Shown here in pieces: positions 1,425 through 58,788 of a stretch of 64,000 nucleotides of DNA (position 1 is its first letter; the number at the start of each line of letters is the position of its first letter). The stretch comes from Psammoneis japonica (taxonomy: Eukaryota). The stretch lies in assembly GCA_008632985.1 (NCBI GenBank), contig QPGO01000144.1, positions 62,001 through 126,000 on the forward strand, given 5' to 3'. A model generated the notes under the pieces. The model was given only the letters and a program-made list of their open reading frames with translations, was not told the origin of the DNA and ran no database searches. Both the position numbers and the translations under genes were made by a program.

Positions 1425-1551
1425 ATGCCCCACCCCCCATGAAGAAGCAGAGGACAGGAGGAGGAAGAGGAGGAGGACAAATGTGATGATGATTCCTCTC
1501 AATGCGAAATGTTCCCTGCGCATGAATGGGAGCCAGTCCCATTCATGTTGA

Positions 1552-5017: not shown

Positions 5018-5101
5018 TTGTGTGGCGCTCTTGCCGCTTCTTTGTCCTCTCCCCTGGATGAGACATCTGAAGAGCTCACCTTGCCCCCGGATCTGCCCGC
5101 T

Positions 5102-5493: not shown

Positions 5494-5499
5494 CACTGT

Positions 5500-9525: not shown

Positions 9526-9746
9526 GACGCGTTCCAGACGTAGGTGGGAATCCGTGTGACATTGGGCCCGTAGACTTCTACGTGCGAGCTCCGCAGCAAA
9601 ATTGCACGGCAATTAAAATGCCAATGATCGCCAACAGAAAATGAGGCAATTTTGCGAACGAACAAACTCGCACATGATTGAAGCACATCATTTTTTACTT
9701 GGCCAGTTGCATTCTTCAGACATTGAAGAATGCAACTGGCGCATTG
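9526..9746. mobile_element. Truncated MITE, GTTCCAG-TIR family (subfamily A), inverted relative to 31981-32376
   Basis: Starts gacgcgttccagacgtaggtgggaatcc, the reverse complement of the right part of the 31981 copy. Second TIR absent. Confidence 0.8.
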
Positions 9747-9933
9747 ACATTCTCACAGGATTTTGCTTTCTCCTGCAACCTCTGGGCCTCCGCAGAGTCA
9801 CACCCACTGTTTCATCCATGACACCTGACATCTGGAGGCCATCAAGACCAAGATCGCCATCTCCTGCAAGGTCTGTTTCAGCATTGTTGTCATTGGATTT
9901 GCCATTGCCAAGAGAGTTTCTTCAATGTCCGAA

Positions 9934-10160
9934 TCAAAAATCCTTCAAGAGAGTCTTGTCACCAATGTCGCGCTTGAAGCAATTGTCTTTGATGCAAAGC
10001 TCTCCCAAATTGGCAAATTTGTTGAGAATCGTGAAATTGCTCATGAAGGAATTGTTGTTGAGATGAAGTTTCACAAGAGACATTAATTCTCCCATTGCAG
10101 TTGGAACTGGGCTGGCGAAGTTGTTGTTGTTGAGTCCAAAGATCCCAAGAGCTGTTCCAA
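9934..10160 (-). pseudogene. Hypermutated leucine-rich-repeat gene fragment
   Basis: ALGIFGLNNNNFASPVPTAMGELMSLVKLHLNNNSF...LGELCIKDN matches the plant-type LxxLxLxxNxFxGxIPxxxGxL repeat, with LYL->LHL and LYI->LCI. Confidence 0.6.
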
Positions 10161-11977
10161 ACACCCCTTTTTCAAAAAAAATCACGTCAAAATCAATCGG
10201 GCAAAAAGCACCCAGAAAACTTTGATTTTGGATTGTTTGATGTGGTTTTTCATGTTGGCCAGCAGCTGTCAAATCAAAAATTGATCTTGACGACACACAT
10301 GAAAAATGAAGTTGCAAAATCAAAGCAACATGACCCATCAAAATGTCGCTCCACAGTGTTGAGCTTCATTGTCAATGTCCAAACCACACCAACCAACAAC
10401 AAAAGCATCACTCCTGGCTCAATCATTGTCAACTTGTGGCAACAAAAGTGACCTCTTTAGAATGGCAGCAACTCATTTGATTGCAGGGCCAGTCTCACAC
10501 CAGTGTGAAGTGCTTGCAGTTGACTCGTGCTGTTTTCAGATGAAGCAAAGCTGTGCATTGTTTTCTTCTTGACATCAGCCATGATAGATTTTGGATCCCT
10601 TGTGGTGGAAAGAGGGGACGAATGAATGTTGCCATTGATCTTCTGCATTAAATTTGGTCATGTGCAGTTCTGTTCTTGCTGTGAGCATCACTCCAGATGC
10701 CTTGTGGCTTGTGTTTGTGGCCACACGACACAATGACAATTTTTTTGGGACAAACAAGCTGCTGCACTCTGCATGTGAGGTGCAAAAAAAGGAAAATGTG
10801 TGACACCACTGGATCCACCACATTGATTTTACAGACATTTGTGGCTCCGCTTTTGCCCTGGCCTTTGGTGCCCCAGATGCTTTGTGGCTCACTTTTGTGT
10901 CAAAACGACACAAGAAAATTGTTTTTGTGCAGCAACAAAAAATCCGTGGTGCTGTTCTTTGCGTGAGCCACAACATTTCACTTTGTCTTTTTTGAGGTGC
11001 ATCATGTGCAATCAACGCCATCACAAAAGGGGTTCAAAAGTGTCGTCGTGTGTGTTGCTTGAGATCGGATGATCGGAGCGAGATGGCACCAAGCACTGAC
11101 AGGCTGAAGCCGTGTTTGCCTGTTTGTGTGGTTGAAAGATTTGGTTAACTTGGATTTGGACAACTTCATTTTTCACTTTTTGGGTGTGGACGGGTCCGGT
11201 GTGTGAGAAACGTCAAGTGCTCATCTGCAATCCACCGTGCCCACCTGGTTCTAAAGAGCACCCAGAGTCTCAAGAGTGGCAGGGTCCAAAGCGTCATTGA
11301 AAAAGAGCACCACCTTTTCTGCACGGCTCTCACTCTCTTTGCTGCCACTGCTGGTTTTGTCACTGGCAATTGCTGCAGTGATTGCTGCAGCAGTCACAAC
11401 AGCAAGAACAGCTGGCACAAAATCAATCCAACAACTCCAAACAACAGACACTTTCTTGATGCTCGTTGATCATTGGTGCTGGCACTCTCCCACCATCGGT
11501 CACCCCCATTGCTGCATTGCTTTCATTGGGCACATGTGCTGCCTCTGCCATGGCACCCCTCTGGTTCTGAAGGGCTTGAACTTCTTGCAGCATGGTTTCG
11601 CCGGAATGTGGCTCCTTGCAAGCGGAGTCATCGTTTGCAACTGAAGCAGCCATCTCTTTTGGGCCGGAGTTTGTCGCAATGAAGACAGTGGCACAGAGCA
11701 GTTTGAAGCCTCATGCTGCAAGCTTCAAATGATTGGCATCCCTGCGGACTGGCCCACTTGTGTCTTTTGTGATGCAAAATGAACACATCATTTGCGCCTG
11801 ATGACCAGCACCAATCTGAAATGGGGCGTGTACTTGCAGCATTAGATTGCCCAAGTGTGTTGTGTTCTCTGATGACGAAAGAATGAAATAAACGCTAAAC
11901 TACAACATGTGACAGCAGAACTATAAGTGATGGTAATTTAAAATAGCCAGAGTTATTACCCAAAGATATGACTGGAG

Positions 11978-19016: not shown

Positions 19017-20410
19017 ACAATGGACTATGACTCTTTCCGGTTAGGTCGTGTGATTTGGCTCGACAGAAATCAGTAGTCTAAGCAGCAGAAGAAACGCACG
19101 TAAAAGTGGGGAGATAGAAAGCTCAAACGGGACGGCATTTCAGTGACCATTTTTGAGTTTCGGTCATTGCAAGTGTTGCTATTTATGCCTAGAAGTCATT
19201 TCTTTGTTGTTTTCTTTGGTACATTAAGAATGTATTTAAATGTCGTTTTTGACGCTATGACCATAGAGGCATAAATACCGCCTCAATCGATTCGTGCGCG
19301 TTGATGACTGCCGAAAATCGAGGATCACGCAAGCAACAGCAATCTTTCGCGCTGTAGAGTCATTTACGTAGAAATGTGTAGAACAGTACCAAGATAATTA
19401 CTGAAAAGTCTGTCTGTCTGTCCTTAGTGAATTTTAACTTCGCGAAAAATGGACTTGACTGTTTTCTGATCAGGTGTATTTTTCTTCAACACATTTGCAA
19501 AAATACACCTGACCCGACAACAGTCAAGTCTATTTTTGCACAAATTGTGTGAACATAACAGTTTCAGTACAAAAACGTGTAGATTCCACAGGCGTCCACA
19601 ATTGTTTTGTGCTTTTTTTCACATTGCGGGTCATTTTCGAAAGACTCCCATTGAACGCCGTCAAACTCTGTGTTCTCTAAGGCAGGGTCCTGCCTTGTGT
19701 CTACATGCATCTTTCCAAGAAAGCTGTCAGCAGTGGCACAGTCTCTCAGCAGAACTAAATGGAGGCAAGTCTGGACACCTGCCGAGAGACTGGCGAGCTT
19801 GTGGCAATGCTGGCAATGCAGAAAAATGTGAGGCAGCGCGGGGTTGGCATGCAGCTCCAGCAGCGGCAATGGACTGTGATTCTTTCTGGTTGGGCCATGT
19901 GATTTGGCATGACAGAAATCAATGAGAGCAGAAGAAACACACGCAAAAGTGGGGCAGATTAGAAAGCTCAAACGGGGCAGCATGTTTCAGCAACCATTTT
20001 TGAGTTTCAGCCATTGCAAGTGTTGCTGTTTGTGCCTGAAAGTCATTTCTTTGTTGTTTTCTTGGGTGCATTGAGAACGCATTTAAATGTCGTTTTTGAT
20101 GTCATGACCACAGAGGCACAAACACCGCCTCAATCAATTCATGCGCATTGATGACTGCCGAAAATCGAGGATCATGCAAGAGCGCCGACAAACCACCACA
20201 CAAAACTCTGTTCTCCAAAAGGCAGGGCCCTGCCATGTGTCTCCATGTGTCTTTCCAAGAAAGCTTTCAGCAGTGGCACAGTCTCTCAGCAGAACTGAAT
20301 GGAGGCAAGTCCAGACATTTGCCGAGAGAGACTGGTGAGCTTGTGACAATGCCGGCAATGCAGAAAAATGTGGGCAATGCGGGGTTGACATGCAATTTCA
20401 GCAGTGGCAA
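19017..20410 (+). repeat. ~530-bp tandem duplication (19017-19866 with MITE; 19867-20410)
   Basis: Both units start caatggact.tga.tctttc.ggtt.gg and end gca..t.cagcag.ggcaa. The second unit is heavily TA->TG/CA mutated. Confidence 0.9.
19334..19653. mobile_element. MITE, CAATGG-TIR family, with internal palindrome
   Basis: Termini caacagcaatctttcg / cgaaagactcccattg. Absent from the sister duplicate. Homologous to 26978 and 36100. Confidence 0.8.
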
Positions 20411-24978: not shown

Positions 24979-26660
24979 TCACATCATTGTGAACGTGTGT
25001 ACAGATCCGGATTTCTCACCATTCGAATCGCGCTCTCTCGAACCAACTACAAGAGTTGTGCCGTTTCCTGACAGCGAAATGGACGATCCAAAGTAGTCTC
25101 CACTCTAGCCGCTCCATTTAATCGACCGCCAACTTGAACCCAATCCTTTTTGCTTGCATTGTATTGAAATGTGACGACTTGTCCAGCATTTGTCCGTCCA
25201 TCAGCATCATGTATAGGTAGCTCCCCACGGCAAGAATGCTTCCAGTTCTGCTCAAGGACACGGCTGCACCAAATCGTTCGCCGTGTTGCTGACTCAAGAG
25301 CGGCGAACCACGTACGTTGTGCCCACGTGGCCGTTTCGCGGTCCAGCGTGTAAACTACGACTCTTCCAAGAACCGTGCCGTAAAAGACATGTCCCGGTGC
25401 ACCCACAGCCAAGATCAAACCCGTGTCATCCAGACAACTTGAACACCCAAACAAACCTTCGGCAACTTGTCCAACAATGGGAAAGCCGAGTGGTTCCCAA
25501 AGCGACGATGAAACATCATGCTCGCACACGTGGACTTGTCCCGAGGCATTTCCACCCAAGTCACCAAAGTGAGCACCAATCGTCACAATCGTTCCCTGGC
25601 CATTCAAGGAAATGGACACGCCAAAGCGGTCGCCACGTGCTTGTCCAAGCAAAATTTGTCCATGTTGGTCCCAGGAGCATGTGTCGGCATTGCAGCAAAA
25701 CAATTTTGCAGATCCGGAGCTGCTGCCATTTCCAGTGTCATCATTGGGAGCTCCAATGGCGAGAATGCTCCCCTCTTGTGACAGTGACAGGGAACATCCA
25801 AAACCACTGCTGCTGCTGCCAGTGGTGTTCCCAACAATGCCCTTGCTGATCTGGTGCCATCGCTGCGTTGCAGGGTTGCACCTGTGCACTTGAACACTGC
25901 CGACATCATTCAGTCCCCCGCTGTCACTGCATGTTGCTCCTGTTGCAAGAATCGTTCCATCAGGACTCAGCACAATGGATCCTCCAAACTCATCACCATT
26001 GGCTGCTCCCACCAATTGTTGACCCAGCGGCATTCAAAGACTGTCATGACTGTGGCACAAGACAGACACACAGCCGGGGTGATGAGAAGAAGGAAGGGCT
26101 TGCGATGCTCCCACAGCAAGGATTGCACCATCATGTGACAAGGAAACGGCTTGACCAAACCAAATGGTCAGGAGATTTTCCAGTCAATTCTCTAGTCCAC
26201 GTTGGAGCCAGGTTTGGATTGTGAGATTCAAGACTTCCTCATCATGAGTCAGCAAGAAGGACAAGGAGTTTGGGGTCCCAGTCATTGGGGGTGCATGTGT
26301 TGATGGCACAATGGAAGGTGACACGGCAAAAAGTCTCTTGGGGGAAACAGTGGGCTCCAGAGTCTGCTCCAGATTCTGTCCATTGTTGCGGTTTCTGGCT
26401 TCATTGTTGTGATCGTTTCTCAATGACACCGGCACTGCAATCGCCAGCACAGCAACAACAACAAAAATCAAAAGCACAGCAACCCCCGCAAAAATTGTGA
26501 AATGATTGCATCCTTGTCACACAGACACACTCCATCAGAATGGCAAGACGATTCATTGGCGTCCTCCTTTGTTGACAACGAGTTCACGGTTGATGCATGT
26601 TGTGCATTTGTTCTTTGTTCTTTGGCACAAAATTCCAATCTGAAGATGGCATCATCGCTT
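24979..26660 (-). pseudogene. FG-GAP-like beta-propeller membrane protein gene, 5' three-quarters hypermutated
   Basis: Repeats GDEFGGSIVLSPDGTILATGA and GDRFGVSISLNGQGTIVTIGA, TM LLIFVVVAVLAIAVPV. Frameshifts. Tyr is lost at coordinates above ~25390. Confidence 0.8.
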
Positions 26661-26977
26661 CTTTGTTTGCCACCCAGCCATGCTTGTCAATCAACAAAAT
26701 CAAATCAAATGTGTGTTGGAATGCGATTGATGAAGTTTGGCAACAATTGCACAGTGCTGCAGCCTCAATTCCACAACCACTTTCTTCTGACAGTGAGCAT
26801 GGTGACAAAATGCCGAGCCCGCTGCTGCAGTGCTCCTTGTCACCATGGCTGCTGTGCCAGAAAAGAAGGACAATTGCGCCGGCATGGTTGCCTTTTGTGA
26901 GACTGTGTTTTTGATTTCACTCTGCGAACAGCAGACCACAGCCCATCTTTTGATGTGTTTTCAACCCAGGTGGGTCA

Positions 26978-27186
26978 CAATGGCAATCTTTTATGCTGCA
27001 GAGTCATTTGCACAGAAATGTGCAGAACATTTGCAAAAATGCACCTGACCCGACAACAGTCAAGTCCATTTTTGCACAAATTGTGTGAACACAACAGTTT
27101 CAGCACAAAAACGTGTGGGTTCTGCAGGCATCCACAACTGTTTTGTGCTTTTTATGTCACGGGTCATTTTCGAAAGATTCCCATTG
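26978..27186. mobile_element. MITE, CAATGG-TIR family, internally deleted
   Basis: Termini caatggcaatctttt / cgaaagattcccattg. 3-bp TSD tca/tcg. Lacks one arm of the internal palindrome. Confidence 0.8.
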
Positions 27187-28997
27187 TCGGGGACAATGCA
27201 CGAGGTTTTCTGCACATTTCCATGTGACACACACTTTTTGCACCACAACAGTGTGCAATTTTTGAGCTCCCACATGATGCCATCTTTTTTTCATGCCTCA
27301 CCCACAAACCACAAATCGCGCACACCAAAAATGGCGCCATGCCGCTGCCATGAACTTGACCATCCTTGCACCATCGTCCACAATGACAAAGAAGGTGAGA
27401 ATGCCAAAAGATGTCAATGAGACTGAGGTCAATGTGATGATGTGGTTGAAGCTTTGATTTTTGCCATTTGTTGTGTCTTGTGGACACCAGCCTTTTTCCT
27501 CATGACATTTTTTATGCCAATTTTTCTCATCCTCAGATTGCGATGCGGCATTCTTTGACACGCAAGGCTCTGTTGACTTGATGCTTCATACACACAACAA
27601 TGCATGTCTTTGTGATGTGTCAGTGTGATTTTTATGATGCATTGAGCACACTTTAAGTTGGCGTGGATGACACTTTTGGGTCAAGTGCAAACATCAAACA
27701 TTGGCACCAAAAAAAGAATGATTTTCTGCATTCAGTTTTGAGGGCGCATGGTGATGAAGAAGCCACTGGATGAGTCCAACAGGTGCAACATTGTAAAGCA
27801 GAACAAAAAAAAGTGACATCTGTGTGTTGCATCCATTTTGCTTTGTTCTGAGGTGGAGCAGGTCAATTGCACATGTGGAAATGCTGTCTGCATTTTGTTG
27901 TTGCCACATCAGAGTGCACGACATCGCAATGTCTGCACGCATGACAAAATTACATTGCTGCATTGTAAAATTTACTTGTCTGCACATGATGGTTTTTGTC
28001 ATTTGGCCAATTGTCAATCTCCTGCCATTCTTCATGTTTGAACACAGGTGCTTTTTAATTTTCATGCTCAGCCTTTTTCACAACAACCAACGATCTTCAA
28101 CGACAAGCCAAACATTGCAACTGCGTGCAATGAAATTTTCATCATGCAAAGTGTGCGCTGATCATTCAATCAACAACTGTGCTCCAATTGGCCCATTCGT
28201 CCACATTGTCCTCTTCATTCCACATGTCTTGTCCGCTCTCTTGCAAGAATTTCAAATGTGCCGCTGCCGTGTTGGATGTTTCCTCATCACTGTTCCAAAA
28301 AAGCCACACTGCATTTCTTGCATTTGGGTGAACATCATCGAGAGGAAGAGGTCCCTCGAAATGCAGAATCGCATCACTGCTCCCCTCTTGACGTCGTGTC
28401 GTCTGCTTCTTTTTCTCTTTCTTCATTTTGCCCGTCCCATTTTTCTCTTCCTTGTTCATCTTGGCGCCACCTGTTTTCACCATCTCTGGCGTCTTTCCAT
28501 CCGAATCCTTCTTTTTCATCGATCCCGTCGCTGTCGCCTTCATCGTGTGTCACTTTGTTTTGGATCCATGTTTCTGACTTCTCTCTGTGTTGTCTCCATT
28601 TCCGAATGTTTCTTTGTGATTGTTCGCACACATCACTTGAAGGCACCCACGTGTTCTTCACGTGCCTTAAAGCGCATGTAGAAATCCATGTTGTTTTCCA
28701 GCACATGCACCCTTTCTCCTGATGCATGTTTGCACAATGTTTTCTTCCATCAATTCTGCACTCCGCATTGCCCTTTCCCAGCATGATCTCACGCAGGATT
28801 TCTCTGGGAGAAGTCACATGCGCGTCTGGCTGGTTTTTGTGTTTAAAACTCCAAATCCCATCAGGCGCGCATGTGACTTCTCCCACCACTCTGGCATGTT
28901 TCCACAGAAACCAGAATTTTGTGACTGACGCACGACCAATCTGGTGAATGCAATGGCGGACCCACGACCACAACAATCAGAGCATTAGAAGAAAACC

Positions 28998-29897
28998 ATG
29001 TCAGATGAACTCCGTCCATCCAATGATGAGGATTTCCGTCACTGGATGACGGAGACAGTTGATGGTTTTGTTCACGCTGACGCTGCTCGTTGTTCGGAGG
29101 AACAGAGAGCAAAGGATGCAAAGGCTGCTGTGTCAAGATCGGCGGAAGCAATGGCAGAAGCCCATTGTGCGTTGTGGCTGCAACGACCGCACTTGAGAGT
29201 GCTTTGTTAAATCAAGCAACAACCACTCGCGAATTTAAGCACACCCATGCACAGTGCATCAAGTCATCGATCAAGACACACTGTTCAGACAACGACCATG
29301 TTGTTGCAGTGGAAAATTGCAGCAAAGCAGAAATGAGTTTCCAGCACTTTCTTCGCGGCAACGCATTTGATGCAAAAGAGCTGGGGCTCCCAATCTCCAT
29401 TGCGGGACACAAAAATCAGAATGTGGGCTAAACATGCTGCACAGCCATGACTCGACGTTGCTTCTGAGAAGCCTCAGGGCAAATTCTGACACAGACACCA
29501 CAAGAGCAGCAGAGAGGGAGTTTTCTGCAATTGACAGCATCAACAAATCCATCCACCACCGTGCCGTGCCACTCCTTCAAAGGCGACATCTAACACAGCC
29601 GCAGCACATCCTGAAGGACACAATCACGTTGCTCCACAAGGCCCTTGACGATTTGACAAGGAAAGACGTTGCCTTGCAGTGACTTTGCATGATCTGAGGC
29701 CAGGCACAGATCAAATGTGGGGAGGGACATGGACCGCGATCCGGGCTGTGGATGAAGAAGCCATGGCAAGAGAAAGGGTCCTGCAGCTGGCATTGCAAAT
29801 TGAGGCACAATTGGTGGCTGTCAACCAGCCTGACCACAGCGCCGACTTTCAGCAGGCAATTGTGGCTGCCAGGGAACATTTCATGGTTGCAGGATGA
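28998..29897 (+). pseudogene. Broken helical ORF of unknown function adjacent to the transposase 3' end
   Basis: Consecutive protein-like fragments (MSDELRPSNDEDFRHW..., AIRAVDEEAMARERVLQLALQIEAQL) in shifting frames, Tyr-free. Confidence 0.3.
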
Positions 29898-29998
29898 CTG
29901 AGTGGACCATGCAAGTGGACACTGCATGGAATCTGTGAGGAAGCAATTGCTCTGAAACTGCACACACTGTGAGTGAATGACAGATTGACACACGTGTC

Positions 29999-32900
29999 CT
30001 GTTTTAGAAACAAATCTGACCAACACTTCCTTCTGTCCTGTGTGGCCCAAACAAGCGGGGCCTTTTCTTGTGCTTCTGCTGCTCCTGGACATTCTTCACA
30101 AACCAAAACATTGTCCCCAATTGCTTTGACAGGGACAACACGTAACTTGGGTGAGTGCTGAGTCTTCTCAGGCGTTGAAAGCCAGTTGTTTCATTTGTGA
30201 TCAAGCTGCCAGCAACTGACCAAGTCTGTGTGCTGATGCCGTTGCCTCACAGTTCTCTGGTCAGCTTGACAAGCAGTTGGATGGACCACTGCAAAAATCG
30301 ATCCTGTGTCTTCCTGTTCAAAGAAACACAGCAAACGGGAGGGAAACTGTTGATCGCCCTTTCGTGTGCCAAAGGTCACACAGGCAAAGTCATGCCATGG
30401 TCCTTCACTTTTGCAATTGGGGTGCGCACAGCAAACATCCCTCCCGTTTGCATTGCAAAACTCTGTCTTGCAAGTCAGGTGTGTGTTTTCACTGTCTTCA
30501 CCAACACAATCCTCCCACTTTTCCGACATGAAGTTTGGCAACACAGGATGAACTTGGCAACGAGCATGCTCACTGTTCCACTCAAACGTCACAGCGCCAA
30601 TCCCTCGGTTGCAGGTGAGAGTGAGTGCACTTCCTCCCAGTGTGTGATTGTCCATCCTGACTCTTGATGATTCCTTTTTCCCAGTTGGCAAAATCCAACT
30701 GTCAGCTGAAATTGCGGCATTGAGCCTCATTTGGTCCTCCACATGCGACACGACCTGCTTCAGAAAACTGTTGAGGTTGCGTTGTTGTGTGGCAGATGAC
30801 GGCAGCTTGAAAAAGTCTTTCAAGAGACATTCCCCCAAGCCTGCGTCAAAGTTCATCGCATGTTGGCAATGACAAAGAAACACTGGGAGATGGAGTGTTT
30901 CATGAAGCTTTTGAAGCTTTCCCCCACATCCTTCTGTTCGCGGGACGAATTGCACTGTCCGGTCAATGAGGAGACGGATTTTCTTGTGTGTTTTCTGAAT
31001 GGATGAACTGGGAGTTGCGCTTGTGATGGGTGGATTGCCTAGCCTGCACCATGCGTGGAAGACAAGAAGGTCCTCAAGCAATTGAATGAATTGCTGGACG
31101 CTGCAGTCAAGTCTTTTTCCCTTGCATTTTTTCTTTTTTTGGTTGTCGTCACCATCCTCAGCCTCACTCTTCTCTTTCTCATCCTCATTTTCGTCCCAGT
31201 CACCCTCTTTGGACTCCTCTGACCTTTCATCATCAGAGTTGTCCAAGCACTCACTAGGTTGGTGGCAACTCTCAAAGTTTGCTTTGGGCATCTTGCGATT
31301 CTCTGGAACAATGGGTTTGTCTGCGTCCTCGTCAAGGAAGCATGACTCACATGCGTTTCGTCCCTCGCTGGTTGACAGGAGAAGGCAGAAAACAAAAGCC
31401 ATTCCAGCCCAGTGGTGAGAGTTGAGAAAGGCAAGCAACGTTGCTCCTCCTTTGAAGTTTGTTTGCAAAAAGGATGCTTTGCAAGTTGACCGGTGATTGC
31501 TGAAAATCCTTTCCACCATGCTGTCCACCTCACTTGCGACCACAGGTGTCATGCTGTCTACAAATGAATTGATCACCCTTTTCAAGGTGCCGTTTTCAAA
31601 GAGATGCATCATGTCGATTGCTGTCGCAAGGGTGATGCCACATGGTTGTGCACCAAAGTCTGCCTCAAAAAGACAGTTGGCAGGTGCGCTGTGTTGCTTG
31701 AGGCAATGCAAGATGCCCAACCAGTGCTTCCTTTCTTGGTCTGATCTGTTGTCGTCGTTGGCCTCAGTTTGCACTTGGTGGAGATCCAGTCCCAGGACAA
31801 ACTTGCATTCAATCCATGGGTCGTCCAGTTTGTTGAAGCCAGCGAGGCAAAAACGACAGCAACGTTGACGACAGTTGTGACCTCCGCATCGTCCAACGAG
31901 ACAGTCGCCACTTTTTGCGTCTCCTGTGATGAGAACGATCAGTGGGATCACATGGAGGTGTCGCATCTCATCCCCTCGTCGACGCGTTCCAGCCCTGGGT
32001 GGGAGCTCGCAGTGCTGACGTGTGACAACAACAATTTTTGTCATCCGTCACATGTTTCGTACGCAGATTTCTACGTGTGATGTTTAAAAAAAATTGTCCA
32101 GACTCGCTGTTTTGCAAAGCCCCAGACGTTTTATATGACAAATTTATAGAAACAACAATGTGCCAGTTACATTCTTCAATGTCTGAAGAATGTAACTGGT
32201 CAAGTAAAAAATGATGCACTTCAATCATGTGCGAGTTTGTGCGTTCGCAAAATCGCCTCATTTTCTGTTGGCGATCATTGACATTTTAATTGCCGCACAA
32301 TTTTACTGCGGAGCTCGCACGTAGAAGTCTACGGGCCCAATGTCACACGGATTCCCACCTGCATCTGGAACGCGTCCGTCGCACGCATGTTTTCATGCCT
32401 CCTTTTCTCATGACTTCCAAAAGTGGCTCCAAAACAACGTGCAAGCAAGTGTGGCAGTCTCTTGACGAGCGTCCCTTCTCCGCCTTGTGATTGTTTGAGA
32501 GATTCTTTGCCGCAGATGACGACATCTTTTCCAAGTCCAGGAGACAACCAATTGGTTTCCAGACATTCTTGTCCAACCATTTGTGAAGGCAACATGCGCA
32601 GAGGTCATGATCACTGGCTCTCCGCAATGTGATCCCATCCCTTGTGTCCTGCCAGTCTTGTCGACGTAAATGACATTGCACTTGAGAAATTGTTTCTACG
32701 GGTCAGTCATCCGTTCTTCACAACTGCACCTGCACCACTCACCCGCCAAAAGGCACTTGTCATCCGGTCCCTTCGCTTTGCACTTCCCAAAAGGATTGTC
32801 TGGATCGGCCACATTCTCTCTGCTGCGCCACAGGTGAGGATCAAGCAAAAACTGTTCCCAAACCTTTGTGAAATCCCATCTTGGCACTGACGCTCGTTTT

Positions 32901-33700
32901 GGCAAACCGGTTTTGAAATTTTTGGTTTCTAGAGTGACAGGAACAGACTTGCTGGGTGGAAGAGGGAAATGCTTGGTTAAGGTGCGCATCAACTCTTTTC
33001 TCCTTGGCAGAACTGCACCAAGCTCAATGTTGCTGTTGCCAGTGTGCCTCTCAATGAAATCAACAATGCAGTCGCACAATTCCAGGGGAGCACCACATGT
33101 GTCCATGAGCTTCTTGCACAACTCTGCGCAAGCTCCGTCAAGATTTGTCAAAGAGGGAGTGGAAGCCAAGCCCTCTTCTGCAGGAGCGTCACACCTGATC
33201 CCCAAATGTTGGTCCTCATCATTGATGTCCTCTTCCTCCTCCATTGTCACGCCCAACACTGCAGCAAAGGATTGACCACCGCCAACATCCAAATCGTTCA
33301 TTGCTGAAAGTTCAACTCCTTGCATGCTGTGGTTTGATGAAACAGAGGACATGTCATCCATTCCGTGCGGTGCATCATCCAGGGAGGGGAACAAGGGGCT
33401 GCTGCTTGGATCACTCATTGAAGATCTTGGGAATCTGCTGCGAGTTGATCGCCTTGGATGGGATTCGTCATCATCAGAGGATGAAGAGGAAGAGCTGCCG
33501 CTTTCTTTGGGTGGCCCCTCTGTTGTGGCAGGAATGTCACTTTGATCTGGGATTGGATCTTGGGTTTGCAACTCTTGGGCAACTGAGCAACACGTCGGCG
33601 AGCATCTCCAATGGCAGGCCATTCGCAAAAACCACAACCGGGACAGAGAAGAGGGTTTCCGTCCATTGCAAATCAGACAACATTGACAGGGCCTTCATCA
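29999..33700 (-). pseudogene. Plavaka/CACTA(CMC)-like transposase, near full length, interrupted by a MITE
   Basis: DKTG...GEPVIMT, WKPIGCL, RDCHTCL, LIVLITGDAKSGDCLVGRCGGHN..CRFC, DMMHLFENG, KLQKLHETLH...NFDAGLGECLLK, CCAHPNCKSEGPWHDFACV, FPSRLLCFF, WSDLF. Family assignment is from remembered motifs, not a search. Confidence 0.8.
31981..32376. mobile_element. MITE, GTTCCAG-TIR family (subfamily A), 396 bp
   Basis: Perfect 12-bp TIR gacgcgttccag/ctggaacgcgtc and 4-bp TSD cgtc. Removing it restores the transposase frame GGMKTCVRRGDEMRHL. Confidence 0.95.
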
Positions 33701-34118
33701 AGACTCACACTCGTTGTCCTTGTCTTGTGGATGAGAAGGGAAAAAAAGAACAACACACAAAAAATGGCAGGAAATTGGCAAACATTGCATTGTCTTCCAG
33801 ATTTGGATGATTCTCACAGGTGTGACATGTCTGCATTTTGATTTTTTTTCTGGCATCCACAATGAATGTTGCACTTTTTATTTGCCATCAAAATGCAGGA
33901 CATTGTCTCCGTTGAAATGCAATGACAGCCACATCAAAAAGCAAGTTGGGCCATTCGTTGTCACACACAAACACATTTTCAAATTTCAAATGTTGCTGAC
34001 AAAATTTGTGCAATGTCACAGAGAAAAACAGAGTGCCTGGCTGTCTCAACATGACCCAAATGATGGTTGCACTGTCAAACAGTGCCGCTCCTCTCATTGT
34101 TGCCGTGAAAAGATCAAG

Positions 34119-35339
34119 ATGTTGTCTCCAGCACAACCGGCAAAGAAGAGAAAGAAACATGAGACCATCAAGCCAATGAGCCCGAGACTTCAGGCAGTGT
34201 TGAAGAGAACAGGTGCGCAGGCAGCGCATGGTGCATTGAAATCAGAAGTAAAGAAGGTGGCTAGAAATGATCTCTTTCCACAGGTGAAGTTTCTCAGTCC
34301 GTCAGAATTGGCAAGCAATGGGAGCGTCTCAATGTTTGTCAAGAAACAGATTGCTGGTGGCAACATGGACACTTCAAATTGGTCAGGAACTTGGGAGGAA
34401 TGGGCAAAAAAGGCGGTAAAAAGGCAAGTTGACAATCGCAGAAACACGGTGTGTTCGGCTGTTGGGGTGGAGGCAATGGCCCGTAAGTCAAGTGACCAAT
34501 GTGTGTGAATCGAGAGTTGCACGTGTCTCACAAGAAGATGAGGGCGATGCTTCATCCATGTGGGCGTTGTCACTGAGGAAGAGGGAAAGGAAAAAGAAAA
34601 GAAACTCAAGGTGGCAGACAGGAGGAAAAAGTGGAAAAAGTCAAGCCGTGACAAGAATGAAGAGAATGACATCCTGTTTGTGCCGACATGGGATCCGTTC
34701 AGCCTGGACACTGTCACCGGCGGTAAACGAAGGAACAAGCAGGCACACAAGTGGTTCTGTGATCACATGCTGCCTCAAACCGAGCAAAAGCAGGCATGGA
34801 GCAGTGCCATCAAAACTGGGAATGCACAGGTCTCACAGTTGTTTGCGGTTGGTGACAAAGCTTTGGCGCCATTGGCTGTGGAGAATTGTTGGCAGGTGTG
34901 GGCATGCAGGAACAAGGAGGAGGCGGTGGAAGAATTGGGTGAGGAAATGGAGCCTGAAGAAACAAGGCCTGCCCCTTGGCACACGACGAAGCCAAAGAAA
35001 CAACAAGTGTCTTGGGGAGATGACGGAATCAATCGGTCCAATGATTTGTGCAAAGAGGTGACGAAAGATGGAGACTCCAAGGAGGGCAAGGAGTTTGAAA
35101 AGTGGCATGCGGAGATCAAGAAAAGCGAGTGCAAGAAGTCCGGAGAAGCAAAAAAGAAGAAAAAGAAAGCACCAACCGGCAATGCGGACAAGGTGAAGGC
35201 AATGAACAGCCCAATGGTGGAGAGCAGCAGGGACGACAACAGCAATGATGATGAGCAGGAGGAAGGCGCAAAAGGCAAAACGGACGACGGAGGAGACGAG
35301 TCCGACGATGATCGTCAGCTTAGTTTGAGAGAGTTGCAG
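34119..35339 (+). pseudogene. Element accessory ORF2 (copy 2), divergent from the transposase
   Basis: Highly similar to 3406-4659. Donor gtaagt at 34483 is intact. The stop TAG has become CAG at 35337-35339. Confidence 0.65.
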
Positions 35340-36099
35340 CAAGAAAATGTGCACACAGTTAACATGGCACTCGGTCATTGCACTGCAGACACAACAAGGG
35401 ATTGACCCAACTGATGAAATGCTTTTCTCATTTAAAATGATGTTTGCAAAAATTGACAAACCAAGGATTGTGTGGAGATGCAATCACGCATTGGCATGTG
35501 GCAACAAGGTGGAGGCAGATGTGGTGATGTGGACATGGTGAAAAACAGCACACACAATTCTTGGTGAGTCATTGCGATGTTGGCACAGCAAACTTGCAAC
35601 CAGAGGTTGGCCTTTCATCACATGACAACAATGTTTTGCAATGTTTTGACAAATTGTCATCATGTAAATCTGCACATTTTTAACATTTCGTGCACTCTGA
35701 TGCACTGCTTCTGCTCATCAAATGACTCAATCACTCTGCATTCATCAAACTTTGTTGCTGGCATTTCGGTGCTGGCGTGCAACTGACTCAAGACTCCCAC
35801 ACAGGTTGACAGATCAGCCGATCTTTGAAACAGCGGATCGCGCAAAAATGCACATGCAAAGTCAGTTCCCCCGATTTTTCACATGCAAAAAATGGAGTTG
35901 GAATGCTGTTTTTTTCAACATGAGCTCTTCACACAACAGAGAATGCGGACATCCTTTCAAAACAGTCAAACTGGACAAAAGAAACAGAGAAACAGCGACT
36001 CAAAGTCATTCAAAAAACTGCCGCGCGCAGTTTCCCGTCATTTTGAGACCAAAAAATTGATTTCGAAAGAGCTTTCTCTTTTTGTCCGCACCCTCCAAC

Positions 36100-36427
36100 C
36101 AGTGGCAATCTTTCGTGCTGTGGAGTCATTGTTTCATAAATGCGCAGAAATCATGCAGACCAATGCCAGCAAAAATGTGAAGTTGTCTGTCCATCTGCCC
36201 TCAGTGAGCTTCAATTCTGCAAAAAATGGACTTCACTGCAATTTGATCAGGCACACTTTAGAACAACACATTTGCAGAAATGTGCCTGATCAGTTAGCAG
36301 TGACATCCTTTTTTGCAAAAGTTTTGAGAAGACAACAGTTTTGGCACAAAAATGTGTAGATTCTGCGGACGTCTGTGAGTGATTTGTGCATTTTGCATCA
36401 TGGGTCATTTTTGAAAGATTCCCATTG
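36100..36427. mobile_element. MITE, CAATGG-TIR family, diverged copy
   Basis: Termini cagtggcaatctttcg / tgaaagattcccattg. 3-bp TSD aac/aac. Confidence 0.8.
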
Positions 36428-36597
36428 AACAAAGAAGGCAGCCGGTCATTGAAAATGAACAGATCTGATGAAAGAACAAGCAAAAAATTGGGGGAAAGCA
36501 TGAGCTCAGATGAGAATTTTTTCTCGCACAAAAAGCACGGTGACGGAAAACATGCAGACGCAATGTGACACCCTCTTGTGCACTGCGCGCATGACCC

Positions 36598-37178
36598 ACC
36601 TGGAACACTGACAAAAATGTCACCAACACAGAAAAACTGCAACATTTTGCACACAAATGAGACAATTCTGTGCACTCTTAAAGCCTCGCTTGTTTGTGAA
36701 ATTGCCCCATTGAACAATTGCATGTCGCCAATGTTTGAGAGACACATTTTTCTCAAGTGATCGGGAGTGCTCTTAAGTGTCACATCGTTTGTCTCCATTT
36801 GTCTCCATTTGTCTCCACTTGTCTCCACTGTGGACTGTCTCCGTTTGTCTCCATTTGTCTCCGTTTGTCTCCATTTGTCTCAGTTTGTCTCCGTGTGTCT
36901 CCGTTTGTCTCCATTTGTCTCTGTTTGTCTCCATGTGTCTCCCTTCTCTAAAACTCACATGCACACAAAAAGACACTTAAGAACACCATGTGTTGCTTGA
37001 GGGCGGTTGGTGATTTTGGCGACATTGTCGAAGTGTCACATGGAAAACAGTGATTAAAATTTATTCAATGCAGTCATTTGCACACCAAACAGATTGCAAG
37101 ATTGCACTTGATTGTCTCATGCAGATGCAAAATGTCTCAGTTTTCTGTTTTGGTGACATTTTCATCAGTGTTCCTGGG
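36598..37178. mobile_element. Foldback-type element: ~190-bp imperfect inverted arms around a minisatellite
   Basis: ggaacactgacaaaaatgtcaccaacacagaaaaactg..acattttgc mirrors gcaaaatgt..cagtttttctgttttggtgacattttcatcagtgttcc. Inner pairs are atgagacaat/attgtctcat, atgtcgccaa/ttggcgacat and cttaagtgtc/gacacttaag. Confidence 0.75.
36788..36943 (+). repeat. 10-bp minisatellite (tttgtctcc[a/g]), ~15 units
   Basis: Directly visible tandem array. Confidence 0.95.
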
Positions 37179-40100
37179 ATGAAAACACATCTTTTGTGCA
37201 CATGGGAGGCACGTGCCTGTTGTGATGAACAAGGGAGTGGAATGCCAAGAACCAGCTTCAGAATGTGGTGTTCACTGAAATCTCTTTTTCTCACTCCTCA
37301 CTGCCACAGCCCACCCAGGAGCAATTGAGTGCTTGGCATGGGAAGCCAACAAATTGATGGGCGTGACTGCACAATGCCCCATCTGGCCTTGCTCTGACAG
37401 GAGTGATGATGGAGACACATTCTGTCTGGCAGAAGTCACATTGGCTCACAAGAAGAATGTGCAAACCTGACCCTTGGTTCAAAGACTTGCGGCCATGGTT
37501 GCATGACTTAATTTTTGCTCCACAGGCCTTGCACTGAGACACCACTTTGGAAAATGCAGATGCCCGCATTGGGCACCTGTGTGCCAGCTGGGTTTTGTGT
37601 CAACAGTGGGGCACTCAGGCTGAACAAGAGGAAGTGCTTGATTGGCATTGGCCACTTGGAGCTGCCAAAGGTTCCCTGGAATGCAAAGATTTGCACACAT
37701 GGCATGTGAGGGTTGACATGCTGCCATGTGGGGATGGAGATTTGCTTTGCTTGTTGAGCTGCAATGTGTCATGCATTCATGTGATTGCACAATGAACACA
37801 GTGTAAAAATGTCATGTTGTGTGCAATCTGCACAAAACACACCACATGCATTTGCTTGTTGTGAGCAAATCTCCGCCGGTGGAGATTTGCTCCAAGAGTG
37901 TGACATCAAGTGCTCCATTGTGACAGCAGCTCATCATAAACTTCATTGTCAAAGGTTGAGATTTAGTTCCTCTTTGTTCACAGATGAAGTGTGCAAAAAA
38001 CCGGTGTTAAAAGTCAACATTGAACTTTCTACATTGCAAAAACGGCCCCCCAGAGTTTTCTGCAAATGCACGCTCCAACACAAAATCACATGAATTGTTT
38101 GTTGTCCAAGAAGTTTGAGAACATTTTGTTCAACACATTTGTGATGTGAGCAAACAAGTCCAGTGGTTGAAGGGTCAAAATGCCATCATCATTGACAACA
38201 TTCCTGTCAAGATTGGTGGCAACAGCATGGGCTGCATTGCTTTGAATGTTGCTTTCCTTTTGCCCAGTGTTGCCAGGCCTGGACACAATTTTGCATGCTT
38301 TTGTTGATTTCCTTCACAACATCTCCAGTCAACCCTTGAATGGCTCAAAAGTGTGCAAGAATCTCACCCCACACTGGATCATTTGCAAATCGGTTGCCAT
38401 TGTTCAAAGTCTTTGCAGACAAACAGTGGGTGCCCTTGGATTGGTGGCAAACCACATCTTCACCTTTGTCAGTTTGTCAAGAATTGGATGACAAAGCACA
38501 AAGACAACAAAGAAAAGATGCAATGCCACAAATGAGGTTCACTCTGAACAAGCATCAGTTGCCCCAAACAAAAAGTGATCAGAGCATTTTTCTCCATTTG
38601 CAAGTGCAAAAAACAAACAGTCAGAGCTTTGCTCTGTTCAAGCCACAGTCAGAGCAACATGCTCTATTTTTAAGACAAACAGAGCAAGATAAAAAGAGTT
38701 GCTCTGTTTGGCTGAAATCAGAGGATGCCTCTGATTGAGCCCAATTTTTCAGAGCCAATGCTCCAAGTGACTCGAGTCTCATTGGACCTTCCACATTTTC
38801 AGAGCAAAAAATTTTTTTCACATCAAAGAAACAACCCAAATGTGCAAGATGAAAATGCAACACGCAAATTGTCATTGATGCACAAGCATGCACACTGCAC
38901 ACATGTGTTCCACACATGCACACAACATTGTCATCAACGTCCATCATCATGTGGTGAGCACCTTTCTTGCTCTGCATGTGTGTGTGTGTGTGTGTGCCAT
39001 GTGGCATTGTCTGACATGTGTTTTGCCCTGCACACACACAATGACACAGTCTTCTCAGTTCTCAGTCTTTGCAAGCTGTTTCCATCTGCAGGCATGGCTT
39101 TTCCTGAGAGGCTCACATGCAAAATTGGCTGGTCACTTGACCAATCTGCAGCATTGTTTTTGTGCAGAGTCAAGCTCATCTCTTCTTTTGTGGTTTTGCA
39201 TGTTGATGTTTTTGCTTTTGCAAGCACTTTTTTTCAAGGCAGCCATGCCAGGTGGGCTTTTTGTGCTCAATGAATGTGGCACAAGCCATCATTTTCTAGG
39301 GCCTGCCACCCAGGCATCTCTTCTCACACAAACCCTGGGGTGTGTGTGCCTTGCTTGGGGGGGCTTGTGGGGNGGGGGGGGCACCATGACTTCTGTGGCA
39401 TGCACCCTGGCCCAGTGCACTGCTGGTTTTGACAACAAACCATCAAACAATTGCTGCCATTGCCTTGTGCAATGCTGGCATCAAAGTTGCCTCTGCTGAA
39501 ACCCAGGTGCAGCGTGGAGCCTCGCCACCACATTGGCAGCCCTTTTGTTCAATCTCCTGGCCCACACTGGCACCCTTGTTCCAAGCAGCACCCAGCACAT
39601 GTCCATTCTTGCTCTTGCCCTCTCCTTCTCTCTCGGCTCCTCAAAAAAGCAAGTGCCTCCTTCGCTGAAGTTCTGGCTCCTCAGGGCTTTTTCCACAGCT
39701 GACCTGACCAGGTGTCTCTTCAGAGAGAGAGAGAGAGAGAGAGAGCATTGGTGACAAGAGAGTGCAAAGCACCAAGTGACAGAGGGCAATGGTTGGGCAA
39801 TTGTGCAGCACAGATTAGAAGCCAACAAGTGAAAGTGGTCTGTGCCTCCCGCCTTGCTCAAATTGGTTTTTCTCGTGCGGCTGCCTCAGCATCAGCCGAG
39901 TTGTCGTGCACGTCATGGAAGCAGCGCCAAAGCAAGCTGCAGCACAACCTTGCTTTTCATCTTCATCAATGTTGCACTGCATGTTGACAAGCAGAGAGCA
40001 AGCTTTGCCAGGAATGAGAAAGGAGAGGGGGGCGAGCAATGCAGGAGGGCAGCCACCACTCAGCTGCTGCTGGCAACCATGGGCTGTCTTGCAGCTTTTG

Positions 40101-40362
40101 GGTCAAAAATGGCAAGACCCAACCCTGCGGAAGGCAAGCCCAGGGCTGGCAGTGGCAGGCTGTGCTGGGTGAGTGCACCTTGCTGTTGCAGGCATCTCAG
40201 AGATGCACCTCCGCCATTTGCGGGGCTTTGTGCGCACTGGCTGCAGGTGCCCACGCTTGCACTGGGGCTGCACCCCCCTTCAGCCCCACAGCTTTGGTGC
40301 TGAGTTGCAAACAGTGATAATCTCAACTCCCAGCAATGGCAACTTCATGGTGTTGTGGTGCC

Positions 40363-55664: not shown

Positions 55665-57899
55665 GGTGCCTTTTTTGGGAGTGTTGGAGTGAATAGAAGA
55701 AGCTACGTGGAAATTGCGTAGAATTTATACCAGCGAGATCTTTTGGGTTTTGTTCGTGTGGGTGACATTTTGCGCGCGTAGAGTGCGCGGGAGAATGACC
55801 AACGGAAATGCACTTCTACGGGTATGAAGCTTACTGTATTTGTGGAACTGTCCGAATGACTTTGAGAATTGCTGCCTGCTTGCACAGCGGTGATGCCACT
55901 GGTCAAGTTCCAATGTGGCAGACAAGATGGGATTCTGCACCACTTGTGTCTGGCTGTGGTGTGGGTGGAGTTTTTCTCATGGTGTGTCTCATTGTCCACC
56001 ACAAGGGGGTTTGCTCAAACTTCTGTGCTGTGCTGTGGCCACAGGCCAAGCAAGGCCAAGCTGTGCTTCTCATGGCGGCTCTTGGCTCTCGTGCCACAAA
56101 TGTGCTNTTGTGGGCATGTGTTGCCATTGCATCTTGTGTCTGGCAGGAATCTGGCAGGTGATGTTGCTTTTCCAATGCCTCTTCTGCTTTGTCTGGAACT
56201 CACATCACATCCACCATCCACAAAATTCAAGCACCTCAACTCATCTTGTCAAAGCACGCCTGTTGGCGACACACCAGCTGCTGAGCAACTCTTCACTTGC
56301 TTTGTTTTTTTGTCATGTGGAGCCTGACAACTGTTTCATGCAGGGTCCAACTGCAGAGATGTGCAAATCAACTTGCAGCCCTCTGCACTTCAATCTGTCA
56401 AGGGTGTGCTGTGCTCTTTGCAGCAAGCACCTTCTTCCCTGTTTGTCTCACAGCAGTTTTTTGCTTTGTCACCACCAGCAGCTGCTGTCTCTGCATGCCG
56501 CTGACTTTTTTTGGGGTGGATGATGACACTCTCTTGTGTGGAACCTGCAATGAACTGCCTGGGGTCCCCCCAAGGATGGCCCTGCAGCTGAGCCCTCCTT
56601 GCTTCTTGCACACAATGTGCTGGAGAGTGCAGAAATGCAGGTTTTGCAACTTGCAATGTGGCAATCAAGTCTGTTGAAGCCTTCTGCCGAAGCCTTTGGC
56701 CAAGGTGGATTTGTTTGCTCTGGCATGCCTGAGTTGACTGACCAGAGTTTTTTGAGGCATCAGGCTGTGACAGTGCACGGAATGTGCTCTGGCTGTGTGC
56801 AGCTCTTTTCCCTTTGCCAAGCTTTGGGAGGAGCTTCCACCTGCTTGCAAAACTTTTGGGCAACCCCACTCCTCCTCTTCTGCACTTGCAAGTGGCAGCG
56901 TTTTCTTTTGCAGCAGCTGGACTCTCCAATTTCAGATTGTTTCTTTGTCCGCATCATGGGCATTGACCAAGTGGCTTCACATGTGGTGAATGAGTCCTTT
57001 TTGCCTGCTGCTGTGCAGCCCACCCCTGACCAACACTGCCATGGTGATGCACGCCCAGCACACCCCATGCTGCAGCTGCCAGTGCATGTTGAATTGGATC
57101 TCTGCTGCTGCACGACATTGACGGCAAACATCAATTTTCACTCCAGCCCTTTTCGTCAGATTGGCAATTGTGCTGCTGTTTGCAACGATGCTGCCTCTGT
57201 GAACAAGACAGGTGTGTGCCTCTTTCCTTTGGCACCAGCACTGCTTTTTGGGCTTTCCCAAGCTCCCAGATGATGACAACCCTGCTGTTCTTTGACTTTG
57301 GTCTTTGATGCCATGCTCTTTTGGTTTGGTTGATGAGCTCAACTCTGGCACCTTTTTGGCTGGCTGCTGCATCATCTGGGGTGTCTGGTGTGTTGCTCTT
57401 TGTGTTGGCTCCAACTCTGCACACTTGGACCCACCCACACTCCCTGATGATGATCCACCAGGAGAGACTTCACGCCCCATCTTTTCTTTCTTTGGACAGC
57501 ATCTTGAGACCGTTTCTCATGATTGTCATTAGAGCGCACAACACAGTGATCATCACGCATCTTTTCATTGTGATTTTTGTTCCTTTTGCAGACAAATTTT
57601 TCATGGTTTCAAACCTTGTCAGTTGTGTGGCTGGCAATGACATGTCAACCATGACAGATCAACATTTTTGTGCTGTGGGATCAGACCCCCCTCCCCATGA
57701 GAAAAAATGTTTCGCTGTGAAACAGGGGCACGTTTTCCCCATGAGAGTGCCGCCCTCCATCCCTGCAAAACCTGTGAATTAAAATCATTTGCATTGCACC
57801 ATGAACATTCCATTTTGTTGTTTGCATTTAAATTGAATGATGCCGACAGAGACAACACCCTGGAGTCTGCAGCAGCAGCTGCAGCTCACTTTCATCAAG

Positions 57900-58760: not shown

Positions 58761-58788
58761 CATCGACATGGAATTGGCAGCTGCCGTG

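Follow-up and report, generated by a model that had tools for sequence, protein, structure and literature searches.

Region-confined loss of TpA dinucleotides in transposon-bearing islands of Psammoneis japonica DNA

How can two copies of one transposon come to read CAG and TGG at the place where a protein should end, and why are tyrosines missing from its coding sequence? These questions are raised by a 64,000-nt stretch of DNA from Psammoneis japonica (GCA_008632985.1, contig QPGO01000144.1, positions 62,001-126,000 of the forward strand), which was analysed as a whole and is termed the window here. It carries a degenerate Plavaka-like DNA transposon with two genes, a transposase and an accessory gene (open reading frame 2, ORF2), and a sister copy of the same element (coordinates in Table 1). 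A preliminary description of this DNA had noticed that the codon 3' of the transposase motif WSDLFLK is CAG in the main copy (reverse complement of 29999-30001, minus strand) and TGG in the sister copy (reverse complement of 2701-2703). It had further noticed that ORF2 ends in TAG in the sister copy (4657) where the main copy reads CAG (35337), and that the ORF2 splice donor is GTAAGT in the main copy (34483) and GCAAGT in the sister copy (3770). Finally, the motifs CCAHPNCKSEGPWHDFACV and GRCGGHN, both within the 618-aa minus-strand frame 30191-32047, were described as carrying Cys or His where Tyr is expected. From this, TA was taken to be the ancestral state of sites that now read TG or CA. 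All of these sites read as stated, and the pattern, in single sites as well as in copy differences, is confirmed and far beyond chance. We show here that TpA is converted to TpG or CpA in confined islands of this DNA, at the DNA level, on both strands, with time and with a preference for T-A-Y (Y, pyrimidine), and that CpG decay occurs alongside. Very probably, the element is a dead Plavaka-like transposon in silenced repeat islands that have undergone a region-confined, context-specific TpA hypermutation.

The direction of change is TA to TG or CA, as is seen when relatives from outside the window are added as outgroups, and this holds for each of the cited cases. At the 18 Tyr positions of the closest homologue, P0001 (60% identity, 303/508), the window copy reads Cys twelve times, His four times, Ile once and Ser once, and never Tyr; the expected tyrosines are thus Cys or His at 16/18 positions. 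Likewise, none of the eight Tyr columns conserved among seven homologues is kept (five Cys, two His, one Trp), while other conserved residues are retained at 60-100%, except for Ile (1 of 2 columns). The three aligned window ORFs hold no Tyr at all in 1013 aa, compared to 2.5-3.2% in the seven homologues, and there are no reverse cases in which a window Tyr would face Cys or His in a homologue. Intact homologues that natively carry Cys or His at these positions, which the preliminary description had named as counter-evidence, were not found among the relatives compared. P0001 ends exactly after WSELFLK, in line with a former stop at the CAG/TGG codon, and the C-terminus of other full-length relatives lies 2-6 residues past LF or LY. 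Hence, TAG is a better ancestor of this codon than CGG. An ancestral GTAAGT donor is supported by the relative L003, which has GTAAGT at the homologous ORF2 intron. Direction was judged here from the homologue Tyr columns; reverting residues by means of homologues and then scoring the product against the same homologues would be circular. One argument of the preliminary description does not carry by itself, namely that a site resolved to TG and CA in different copies implies TA, since CG yields an identical pattern. CpG decay, overlooked there, does contribute to the TG/CA sites, and 7 of the 34 Arg positions of P0001 read Gln, Cys or His in the window.

The loss is restricted to two dinucleotides. 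Relative to 18 intact relatives, only TA (ratio 0.13) and CG (0.64) drop in the transposon; the other ratios are AT 0.83, AA/TT 1.18, AC/GT 0.99, AG/CT 0.98 and GA/TC 0.99. A gain in CA/TG of 41 per kb stands against a combined TA and CG loss of about 50 per kb. CpG makes up about a third of the lost pyrimidine-purine steps (16.5 of ~50 per kb) and explains none of the TA loss. Survival of TA depends on its neighbours: it is 0.00-0.03 for ATAT, GTAC, ATAC and ATAG, 0.10-0.30 with one T-side flank and 0.61-0.73 for TTAA, and this order is the same with two baselines, the normal domains of the window and metagenome relatives. By half-site, survival is 0.03 for TAT, 0.08 for TAC, 0.11-0.13 for TAG and 0.27-0.29 for TAA. 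Seen strand by strand, the target is thus hit most when it is the A of T-A-T or T-A-C, less in T-A-G and least in T-A-A. It follows from this flank rule that Tyr changes to Cys more commonly than to His and that G-T-A-A-G-T becomes GCAAGT. For CG, the heaviest loss is seen at TCG (TCGA 0.17; half-site TCG 0.30-0.49 compared to 0.43-0.77 for the others). Within the islands, CA and TG occur at the same frequency and show no strand runs (runs test, z -1.1 to +1.6). The change is found in non-coding DNA as well as in a DNA transposon, and the action is on DNA and on both of its strands.

The two transposon copies (2667-5018 and 29965-30263 plus 33683-35698) were compared with each other. Of 2311 aligned columns, 215 differ between them, and transitions account for 184 of the differences. 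Adjacent double differences number 63, where about 20 are expected under independence; 46 of them are CA in one copy and TG in the other, and every other double-transition type occurs at most three times. Together with 19 sites that read TA against TG/CA and 45 that read CG against TG/CA, this places 156 of the 215 differences among the dinucleotides TA, CG, TG and CA, and by derivation only 28 of the 184 transitions fall outside. A host duplicate of about 830 bp and 87% identity that lies in normal DNA (24233-25052 and 42665-43496) served as control and carries no hypermutation signature: its 818 aligned columns show 54 transitions and 42 transversions, and CA/TG sites are absent. The oppositely resolved sites show that the transposon copies were mutated in place, by independent events in each.

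The preliminary description dealt with the transposon, but the signal covers whole islands. Three islands alternate with gene-bearing stretches, the normal domains, and their observed/expected (o/e) dinucleotide ratios are given in Table 1. Island edges are sharp to a few hundred bases, and GC content is equal in islands and normal domains (0.478 for the element, 0.48 in the comparison with relatives). In six-frame translation, Tyr makes up 0.12% of residues in the islands and 2.11% outside, and TAA and TAG together are counted 217 times in the islands and 914 times outside. Because two of the three stop codons vanish with TA, long frames are over twice as dense in the islands as in real genes, with 2.36 open frames of at least 130 codons per kb (79-81 in 34 kb of island) against 1.10 outside. 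We scanned 67 of 79 island frames against Pfam separately; the other 12 lie in 30179-35483, where five frames were scanned as well. Among the 67, 66 gave no significant hit and no viral gene was recognised, the exception being a fragment of a host FG-GAP-repeat gene. Island contents of foreign origin are the Plavaka-like element, its deletion derivative and copies of a miniature inverted-repeat transposable element (MITE). Isolated N letters stand at 39373 and 56107, each within a hypermutated island.

Table 1. Islands, normal domains and repeat features of the window (positions within the 64,000 nt)
Feature	Position	Strand	Remarks
Hypermutated island D1	1..11300		TA o/e 0.06, CG 0.37, CA 1.66, TG 1.72; last sparse TA 11252, dense TA from 11831
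Hypermutated island D2 (holds transposon)	25450..40300		TA o/e 0.07, CG 0.45; dense TA ends 25381, resumes ~40491-40838
Hypermutated island D3	55900..64000		TA o/e 0.05, CG 0.34; last TA before island 55837
Islands overall			TA o/e 0.05-0.07, CG 0.34-0.45, CA/TG 1.66-1.83; TA 4.3 per kb
Gene-bearing stretches between islands			TA o/e 0.53-0.57, CG ~1.0, CA/TG 1.10-1.21; TA 37.3 per kb
Degenerate full-length two-gene Plavaka-like DNA transposon	29965..35698		divergent transposase and ORF2; aligns to sister copy at both ends
Transposase pseudogene	29999..33694	-	pieces 32696-33694, 32408-32695, 30191-32047, 30002-30190; former stop reads CAG at 29999-30001
ORF2, accessory gene	33735..35405	+	two same-frame blocks; donor GTAAGT at 34483; former TAG stop reads CAG at 35337
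Sister copy, internal-deletion derivative	2667..5018		no equivalent of 30264-33682; TAG 4657, GCAAGT 3770, TGG after WSDLFLK
Host FG-GAP-repeat gene fragment	25047..26033	-	straddles D2 edge; Pfam FG-GAP_2 55.8 bits at 25452-26033
Small repeat copy in normal domain	19339..19656	+	keeps TA; island copies 36105-36430 and 27000-27190 read TG/CA
Nested young MITE-like insertion, 401 bp	31977..32377	-	24-nt terminal inverted repeats
Older MITE-family copy	5101..5498	+	0 TA
Further MITE copies, ~400-bp family	9525-9746, 63159-63464, 63461-63864

Location, not repeat family, decides which DNA is exposed. The FG-GAP fragment, compared with its paralogue at 43655-45718, keeps its tyrosines below about 25381 (VVVYTLD, TFQYNAS), and above that position it reads VQVHRCN, KLFCCNADTCSW and VHVCEHD where the paralogue has VRVYRR and VYVYQYE. 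Mutation thus reaches about 650 bases into a fragment of a host gene. The fragment is part of a segmental duplication (24176-26033 and 42626-45718) of a NUDIX hydrolase gene and an FG-GAP-repeat gene, of which the first FG-GAP copy is truncated and enters D2. Conversely, the small repeat copy in the normal domain has retained TA sites that read TG/CA in the island copies (11/12 and 6/6; reverse cases 1 and 0). Age of an insertion matters as well. The MITE nested in the transposase gene has a TA o/e of 0.46 and a CG o/e of 1.24, and its immediate flanks lie at 0.05-0.06 and about 0.5. Across the MITE copies TA o/e is graded (0.46, 0.32, 0.22, 0.08, 0), and the closest pair differs by 30 transitions and a single transversion. 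The grading indicates that loss accrues with time after insertion and separately in each copy. In general, young copies and copies outside the islands keep TA where older or island copies read TG/CA.

The sole public DNA sequencing run that contains the stretch (X1, share 0.40) was examined in the form of contigs. Among the listed runs no RNA run contained it, and from runs X2 and X3 no contig aligned. The transposon family is high-copy, with 5538 contigs aligned on 5.9 kb, of which 1014 match at 99% or above, and 157 of 174 variant places in the transposon are transitions. Among the 40 best-supported variants, 23 are places at which the window has CA or TG and other copies have CG. The deletion joint of the sister copy (30263 to 33683) is found in these contigs, and so are transposon copies without the MITE (skipping from 31976/31977 to 32377/32378). 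Depth is 100,000-157,000 at the nested MITE and about 5,000-6,000 in its flanks; with a summed depth about 20 times that of its host transposon, the MITE family is among the most abundant repeats of the genome.

Related metagenome loci have a TA o/e of 0.42-0.72, that is a normal one, in 36 of 36 cases, hence TA depletion is not a trait of the transposon family. Two of these loci have lost CpG strongly and have normal TA (L034 with CG 0.01 and TA 0.59, L027 with CG 0.25 and TA 0.52). CpG decay and TpA loss can therefore be uncoupled. In a Tyr tally of 154 related proteins (150 listed of 852, plus four), two have a single Tyr each, P0224 (1290 aa) and P0210 (1127 aa). At conserved Tyr columns, P0224 carries four His, one Cys, one Tyr and five other residues, and P0210 four Cys and four others. 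Both are distant Plavaka-like proteins from public protein sets and are probably hypermutated copies that were annotated as genes in another assembly.

The transposon itself is badly damaged. Its transposase frame (33694 to 29999) is interrupted by an in-frame TAG (32696-32698), at least one frameshift, the nested MITE (31977-32377) and a TGA (30191-30193). None of the 25 listed inverted pairs, out of 47, forms a terminal inverted repeat that joins the ends of the element; hypermutation would erode such repeats. The Plavaka label (PF18759) that it received in the preliminary description is supported by an indirect route. Neither the five window ORFs of the transposon that were scanned nor P0001 have a Pfam hit. 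A search with P0001 gave nine longer relatives of 1013-1434 aa, and three of the nine pass the PF18759 cut-off of 26.3 bits (P0002 28.4, P0007 40.4, P0008 29.6), the other six having none. Full-length homology to these domain-carrying proteins is strong (phmmer E-values 1e-114 for P0002, 1e-84 for P0008 and 3.5e-84 for P0007), identity to full-length relatives is 35-44%, and a HMMER search of 1.84 billion representatives yielded 852 relatives with E-values up to 0.001. Relatives of ORF2 lie upstream of the transposase and on the opposite strand in six metagenome loci (L003, L010, L013, L020, L021, L025), which makes ORF2 a conserved second gene of the family. The likeness to the Plavaka family thus lies in full-length relatives that carry its domain; the window copy differs in that its branch is distant, consists mostly of metagenomic members and has conserved a divergent ORF2, and in having no Pfam hit of its own.

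What kind of process could leave this footprint? Within the islands, the A of TpA on one or the other strand has undergone an A:T to G:C transition, which leaves TG or CA in place of 5'-TA-3'. The process strongly favours T-A-Y (equivalent to R-T-A on the other strand; R, purine) and mostly spares TTAA, and in the same islands CpG has decayed to TpG or CpA, most strongly at TCG. In coding sequence the outcome is Tyr to Cys or His, TAG and TAA stops to CAG, TGG or TGA, and a GTAAGT donor to GCAAGT. We infer an enzyme-driven, defence-like process, similar to the one measured in mutation-accumulation lines of Bigelowiella natans. Its chemistry is most likely adenine deamination, in which A becomes inosine and is read as G, by a DNA-acting deaminase that would be aimed at silenced chromatin.

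In B. natans, the mutation rate of two integrated viral regions exceeds that of the remaining genome about 1000-fold, with activity only in episodes, and of 231 de novo mutations recorded in them 230 were A to G or T to C, all of these on TpA (Mettrop et al., bioRxiv 10.64898/2026.01.13.699255, here and below as far as the preprint was accessible). As the lasting trace of the process, the same preprint describes 124 clusters of 1-kb windows depleted in TpA and enriched in CpA and TpG, and in a separate analysis transposon-type Pfam domains are enriched among TpA-depleted coding sequences. Its authors propose adenine deamination and name ADAT2 as a candidate. The likeness to the window is close: the change is A to G or T to C on TpA only, the products are TpG and CpA, and the process is confined to regions of foreign origin. 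Islands of the window also pass the 1-kb window thresholds of the preprint (rho TpA at most 0.43, rho CpA+TpG at least 1.52). Consecutive 1-kb windows below the TpA threshold cover 1-12000 (12 windows), 25001-41000 (16) and 56001-64000 (8). CA and TG both lie at about 1.5-2.1 in most of them, with lower values in edge windows and CA or TG down to 1.42 in a few others. There are differences, too. B. natans is a chlorarachniophyte (Rhizaria), and the host here is diatom-like (Stramenopila). TpA depletion is near saturation here, with TA at 0.4% of dinucleotides compared to 3.3% in the hypermutable B. natans region of nucleocytoplasmic large DNA virus origin that the preprint describes. The targets here are transposon islands with sharp edges in which no viral genes were recognised, while in the preprint they are integrated viral DNA. 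CpG loss co-occurs here, whereas the main text of the preprint does not mention the words CpG, flanking, trinucleotide or diatom. Mutation is known here from its footprint alone, and the B. natans rates were measured de novo. In the open-access literature and bioRxiv we found, beyond this preprint, no report of TpA-erasing hypermutation in diatoms or other organisms. The phenomenon belongs to a kind that was described very recently and once, in an unrelated lineage.

The alternative that survives best retains the same regional TpA process and moves the chemistry to thymine. TET/JBP-type oxidation to 5-hydroxymethyluracil or 5-formyluracil, bases that could pair wrongly with G, would produce T to C at R-T-A. 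Its outcome in sequence is identical, since a T to C change seen on one strand reads as A to G from the opposite one. In fungi, Plavaka/KDZ transposons are accompanied by TET/JBP genes, and T to C mutations are promoted by 5-formyluracil. On the other side, ORF2 and the transposase give no Pfam dioxygenase hit, and the B. natans study favours adenine deamination with ADAT2 as candidate in its accessible part; neither point is decisive. We regard thymine oxidation as unlikely, although it deserves to be kept in mind. Repeat-induced point mutation (RIP) of the fungal type, triggered by homology and reversed in polarity so that duplication would call for TpA loss, is quite improbable. The islands are made of repeats, the transposon family is high-copy (5538 contigs on 5.9 kb), and the leak of about 650 bases into the adjoining host gene fragment is reminiscent of fungal RIP, which also leaks into adjoining DNA. 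Duplication, however, does not predict what is hit: the repeat copy outside the islands keeps its TA where island copies have lost 11/12 and 6/6, the host duplicate of about 830 bp and 87% identity is unmarked in normal DNA, and a very abundant MITE newly nested in an island is still near normal. The main target in B. natans is moreover single-copy, according to the accessible part of the preprint.

Decay of methylated CpG as the only cause would derive every TG and CA from CG, and the Cys, His, Gln and Trp codons from CGN Arg codons, without TA ever having been present. In favour of this, CG o/e is 0.34-0.45 in the islands and about 1.0 outside, 45 sites read CG against TG/CA between the copies, 7/34 Arg positions of P0001 are changed to Gln, Cys or His, and 23/40 of the best X1 variants read CG against CA/TG in the window. 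It is also in line with methylation in diatoms, which is mostly at CpG in the part of PMC5124317 that was accessible. CpG decay, however, cannot remove TA, and TA o/e is 0.05-0.07 in the islands; of the 18 tyrosines of P0001 all are lost, 16 of them to Cys or His. In addition, young copies and copies outside the islands hold TA exactly at the sites where island copies read TG/CA, and the CpG-poor loci L034 and L027 have kept TA at 0.52-0.59. CpG decay is a real contributor; as sole cause it is highly improbable and already refuted by the Tyr columns. Equally improbable is a sequencing or base-calling artefact, in which modified bases of heterochromatin would be misread and TA and CG miscalled as TG/CA. 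Both depleted dinucleotides are classic targets of modification, two isolated N occur in the window, and the platforms of the assembly and of X1 are not on record. An artefact would give the same letter in each context, but the copies read TG in one and CA in the other at 46 identical sites; 1014/5538 X1 contigs match at 99% or above and copy variants are mostly transitions (157/174), the TA loss of the MITEs is graded, and two other nearly Tyr-free relatives stand in public protein sets. Least of all can one believe in ADAR-like RNA editing fixed through an RNA intermediate, or in GC-biased gene conversion or selection against TA, even though ADAR favours a 5' U (10.64898/2026.01.13.699255, accessible part) and GC can be raised by conversion between repeat copies: we deal with a DNA transposon, the mutations extend to non-coding flanks and to a fragment of a host gene, neither strand bias nor strand runs occur, and AA/TT, AC/GT and AG/CT are undepleted (AT 0.83) at unchanged GC, so there is no general AT to GC drift.

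Several points weigh against a TpA-specific hypermutation by an adenine deaminase as the full explanation. That the process is ongoing, that it is linked to silencing and which enzyme carries it out are inferred, and thymine chemistry would leave the same trace. The 3' preference is Y > G > A, which does not match that of the substrates of ADAR and of eukaryotic ADAT2/3. A single Tyr codon (context TTAC) is still present in the middle piece of the transposase (32408-32695), outside the Tyr tally, and a TAG stop (32696-32698) has likewise persisted inside the transposon. As a stand-in for the ancestral composition of the islands, distant relatives or the normal domains were used. Among the 46 sites with opposite resolution, some derive from TA and some from CG, and outgroups would be required to tell them apart. 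An independent-hit model fitted on retained sites predicted about 16 such sites where 46 are seen, and site heterogeneity is large; it was dropped as a quantitative model because resistant sites of the TTAA type inflate the retained class. X1 may be the source sample of the assembly and thus not independent of it. Finally, the host lineage is most likely a diatom, an assignment that rests on leads.

Context-specific deamination as such is familiar from APOBEC on DNA, ADAR on RNA and engineered TadA base editors, and APOBEC and ADAR serve as weapons against foreign nucleic acid. Deaminases of the tRNA A34 lineage typically edit an A that has a 5' T or U next to it. To our knowledge, no natural adenine deaminase that acts on chromosomal DNA has been established as a genome defence. 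The features of ADAR-type hyper-editing, a 3' G preference, strand-coordinated tracts and an RNA substrate, are not seen here, where the 3' preference is Y > G > A and strand runs are absent. With fungal RIP the window shares an irreversible, context-bound transition mutagenesis of transposons that leaks into unique DNA and destroys reading frames. Its defining features are not found, though: classical RIP turns C into T at CpA, with a gain in TpA (PMC2621366, accessible part), and it is triggered by duplication, whereas here the polarity is opposite, TpA is erased, GC is not lowered and location rather than duplication tracks the target. The CpG arm resembles the TpCpG hypermutation of repeats in Pucciniomycotina (Horns et al., 2012, PMC3318451, accessible part) in that it also prefers TCG. 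It likewise resembles the decay of methylated CpG in silenced transposons, with CG o/e at 0.34-0.45 in the same islands and TG/CA as products.

It is possible, and we put it forward tentatively, that diatoms and perhaps much of SAR (Stramenopila, Alveolata and Rhizaria) possess a chromatin-directed DNA adenine deaminase beside cytosine methylation, which would erase TpA to saturation in foreign DNA that has been silenced. If this were true, fungal RIP would have a mirror image in which Tyr codons, TAA and TAG stops, TATA-like signals and GTAAGT donors are lost at unchanged GC content, and a natural TpA-specific A-to-G editor of chromosomal DNA would exist. One may speculate that the shared 5' T (T-A-Y and T-C-G) would fit a single enzyme deaminating both A and C. 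A footprint at saturation in diatom-like transposon islands would make TpA hypermutation a widespread, defence-like process and not a curiosity. The flank rule, the co-localisation with CpG decay and the sharp edges can be used in a search for the enzyme and its targeting signal. Islands of this type are likely to seed spurious gene models, free of Tyr and rich in Cys and His, in automatic annotation. Reverting TG/CA to TA or CG would help to recover degraded repeat families, as deRIP does for fungi.

In genes of the normal domains, exons are long and introns, of the GT-AG type, measure about 90-100 nt; genes of B. natans, unlike those of the window, have many introns. For the FG-GAP protein, the nearest protein-atlas cluster is commonest in Bacillariophyta (score 0.92), and the NUDIX gene has only two organism-named relatives, both from diatoms, Amphora coffeaeformis (61%) and Seminavis robusta (54%). 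A protein-atlas query with the BEACH-domain protein gave no hint of the lineage. At 15901-19077 (-), a single frame of 1058 aa encodes about fifteen near-identical repeats of 39 residues (KKLTQEEKDELAKERIKQADRLADQRMG...), with an acidic tail and a transmembrane segment behind them; a 117-bp tandem array at 17125-18843 underlies these repeats. An apparent BEACH-domain gene (46237-55815) has a single in-frame TGA at 54276-54278 (-) between the long frames 54276-54911 and 52653-54275. This stop could belong to a short intron, mark a pseudogene or stem from an error in the assembly.

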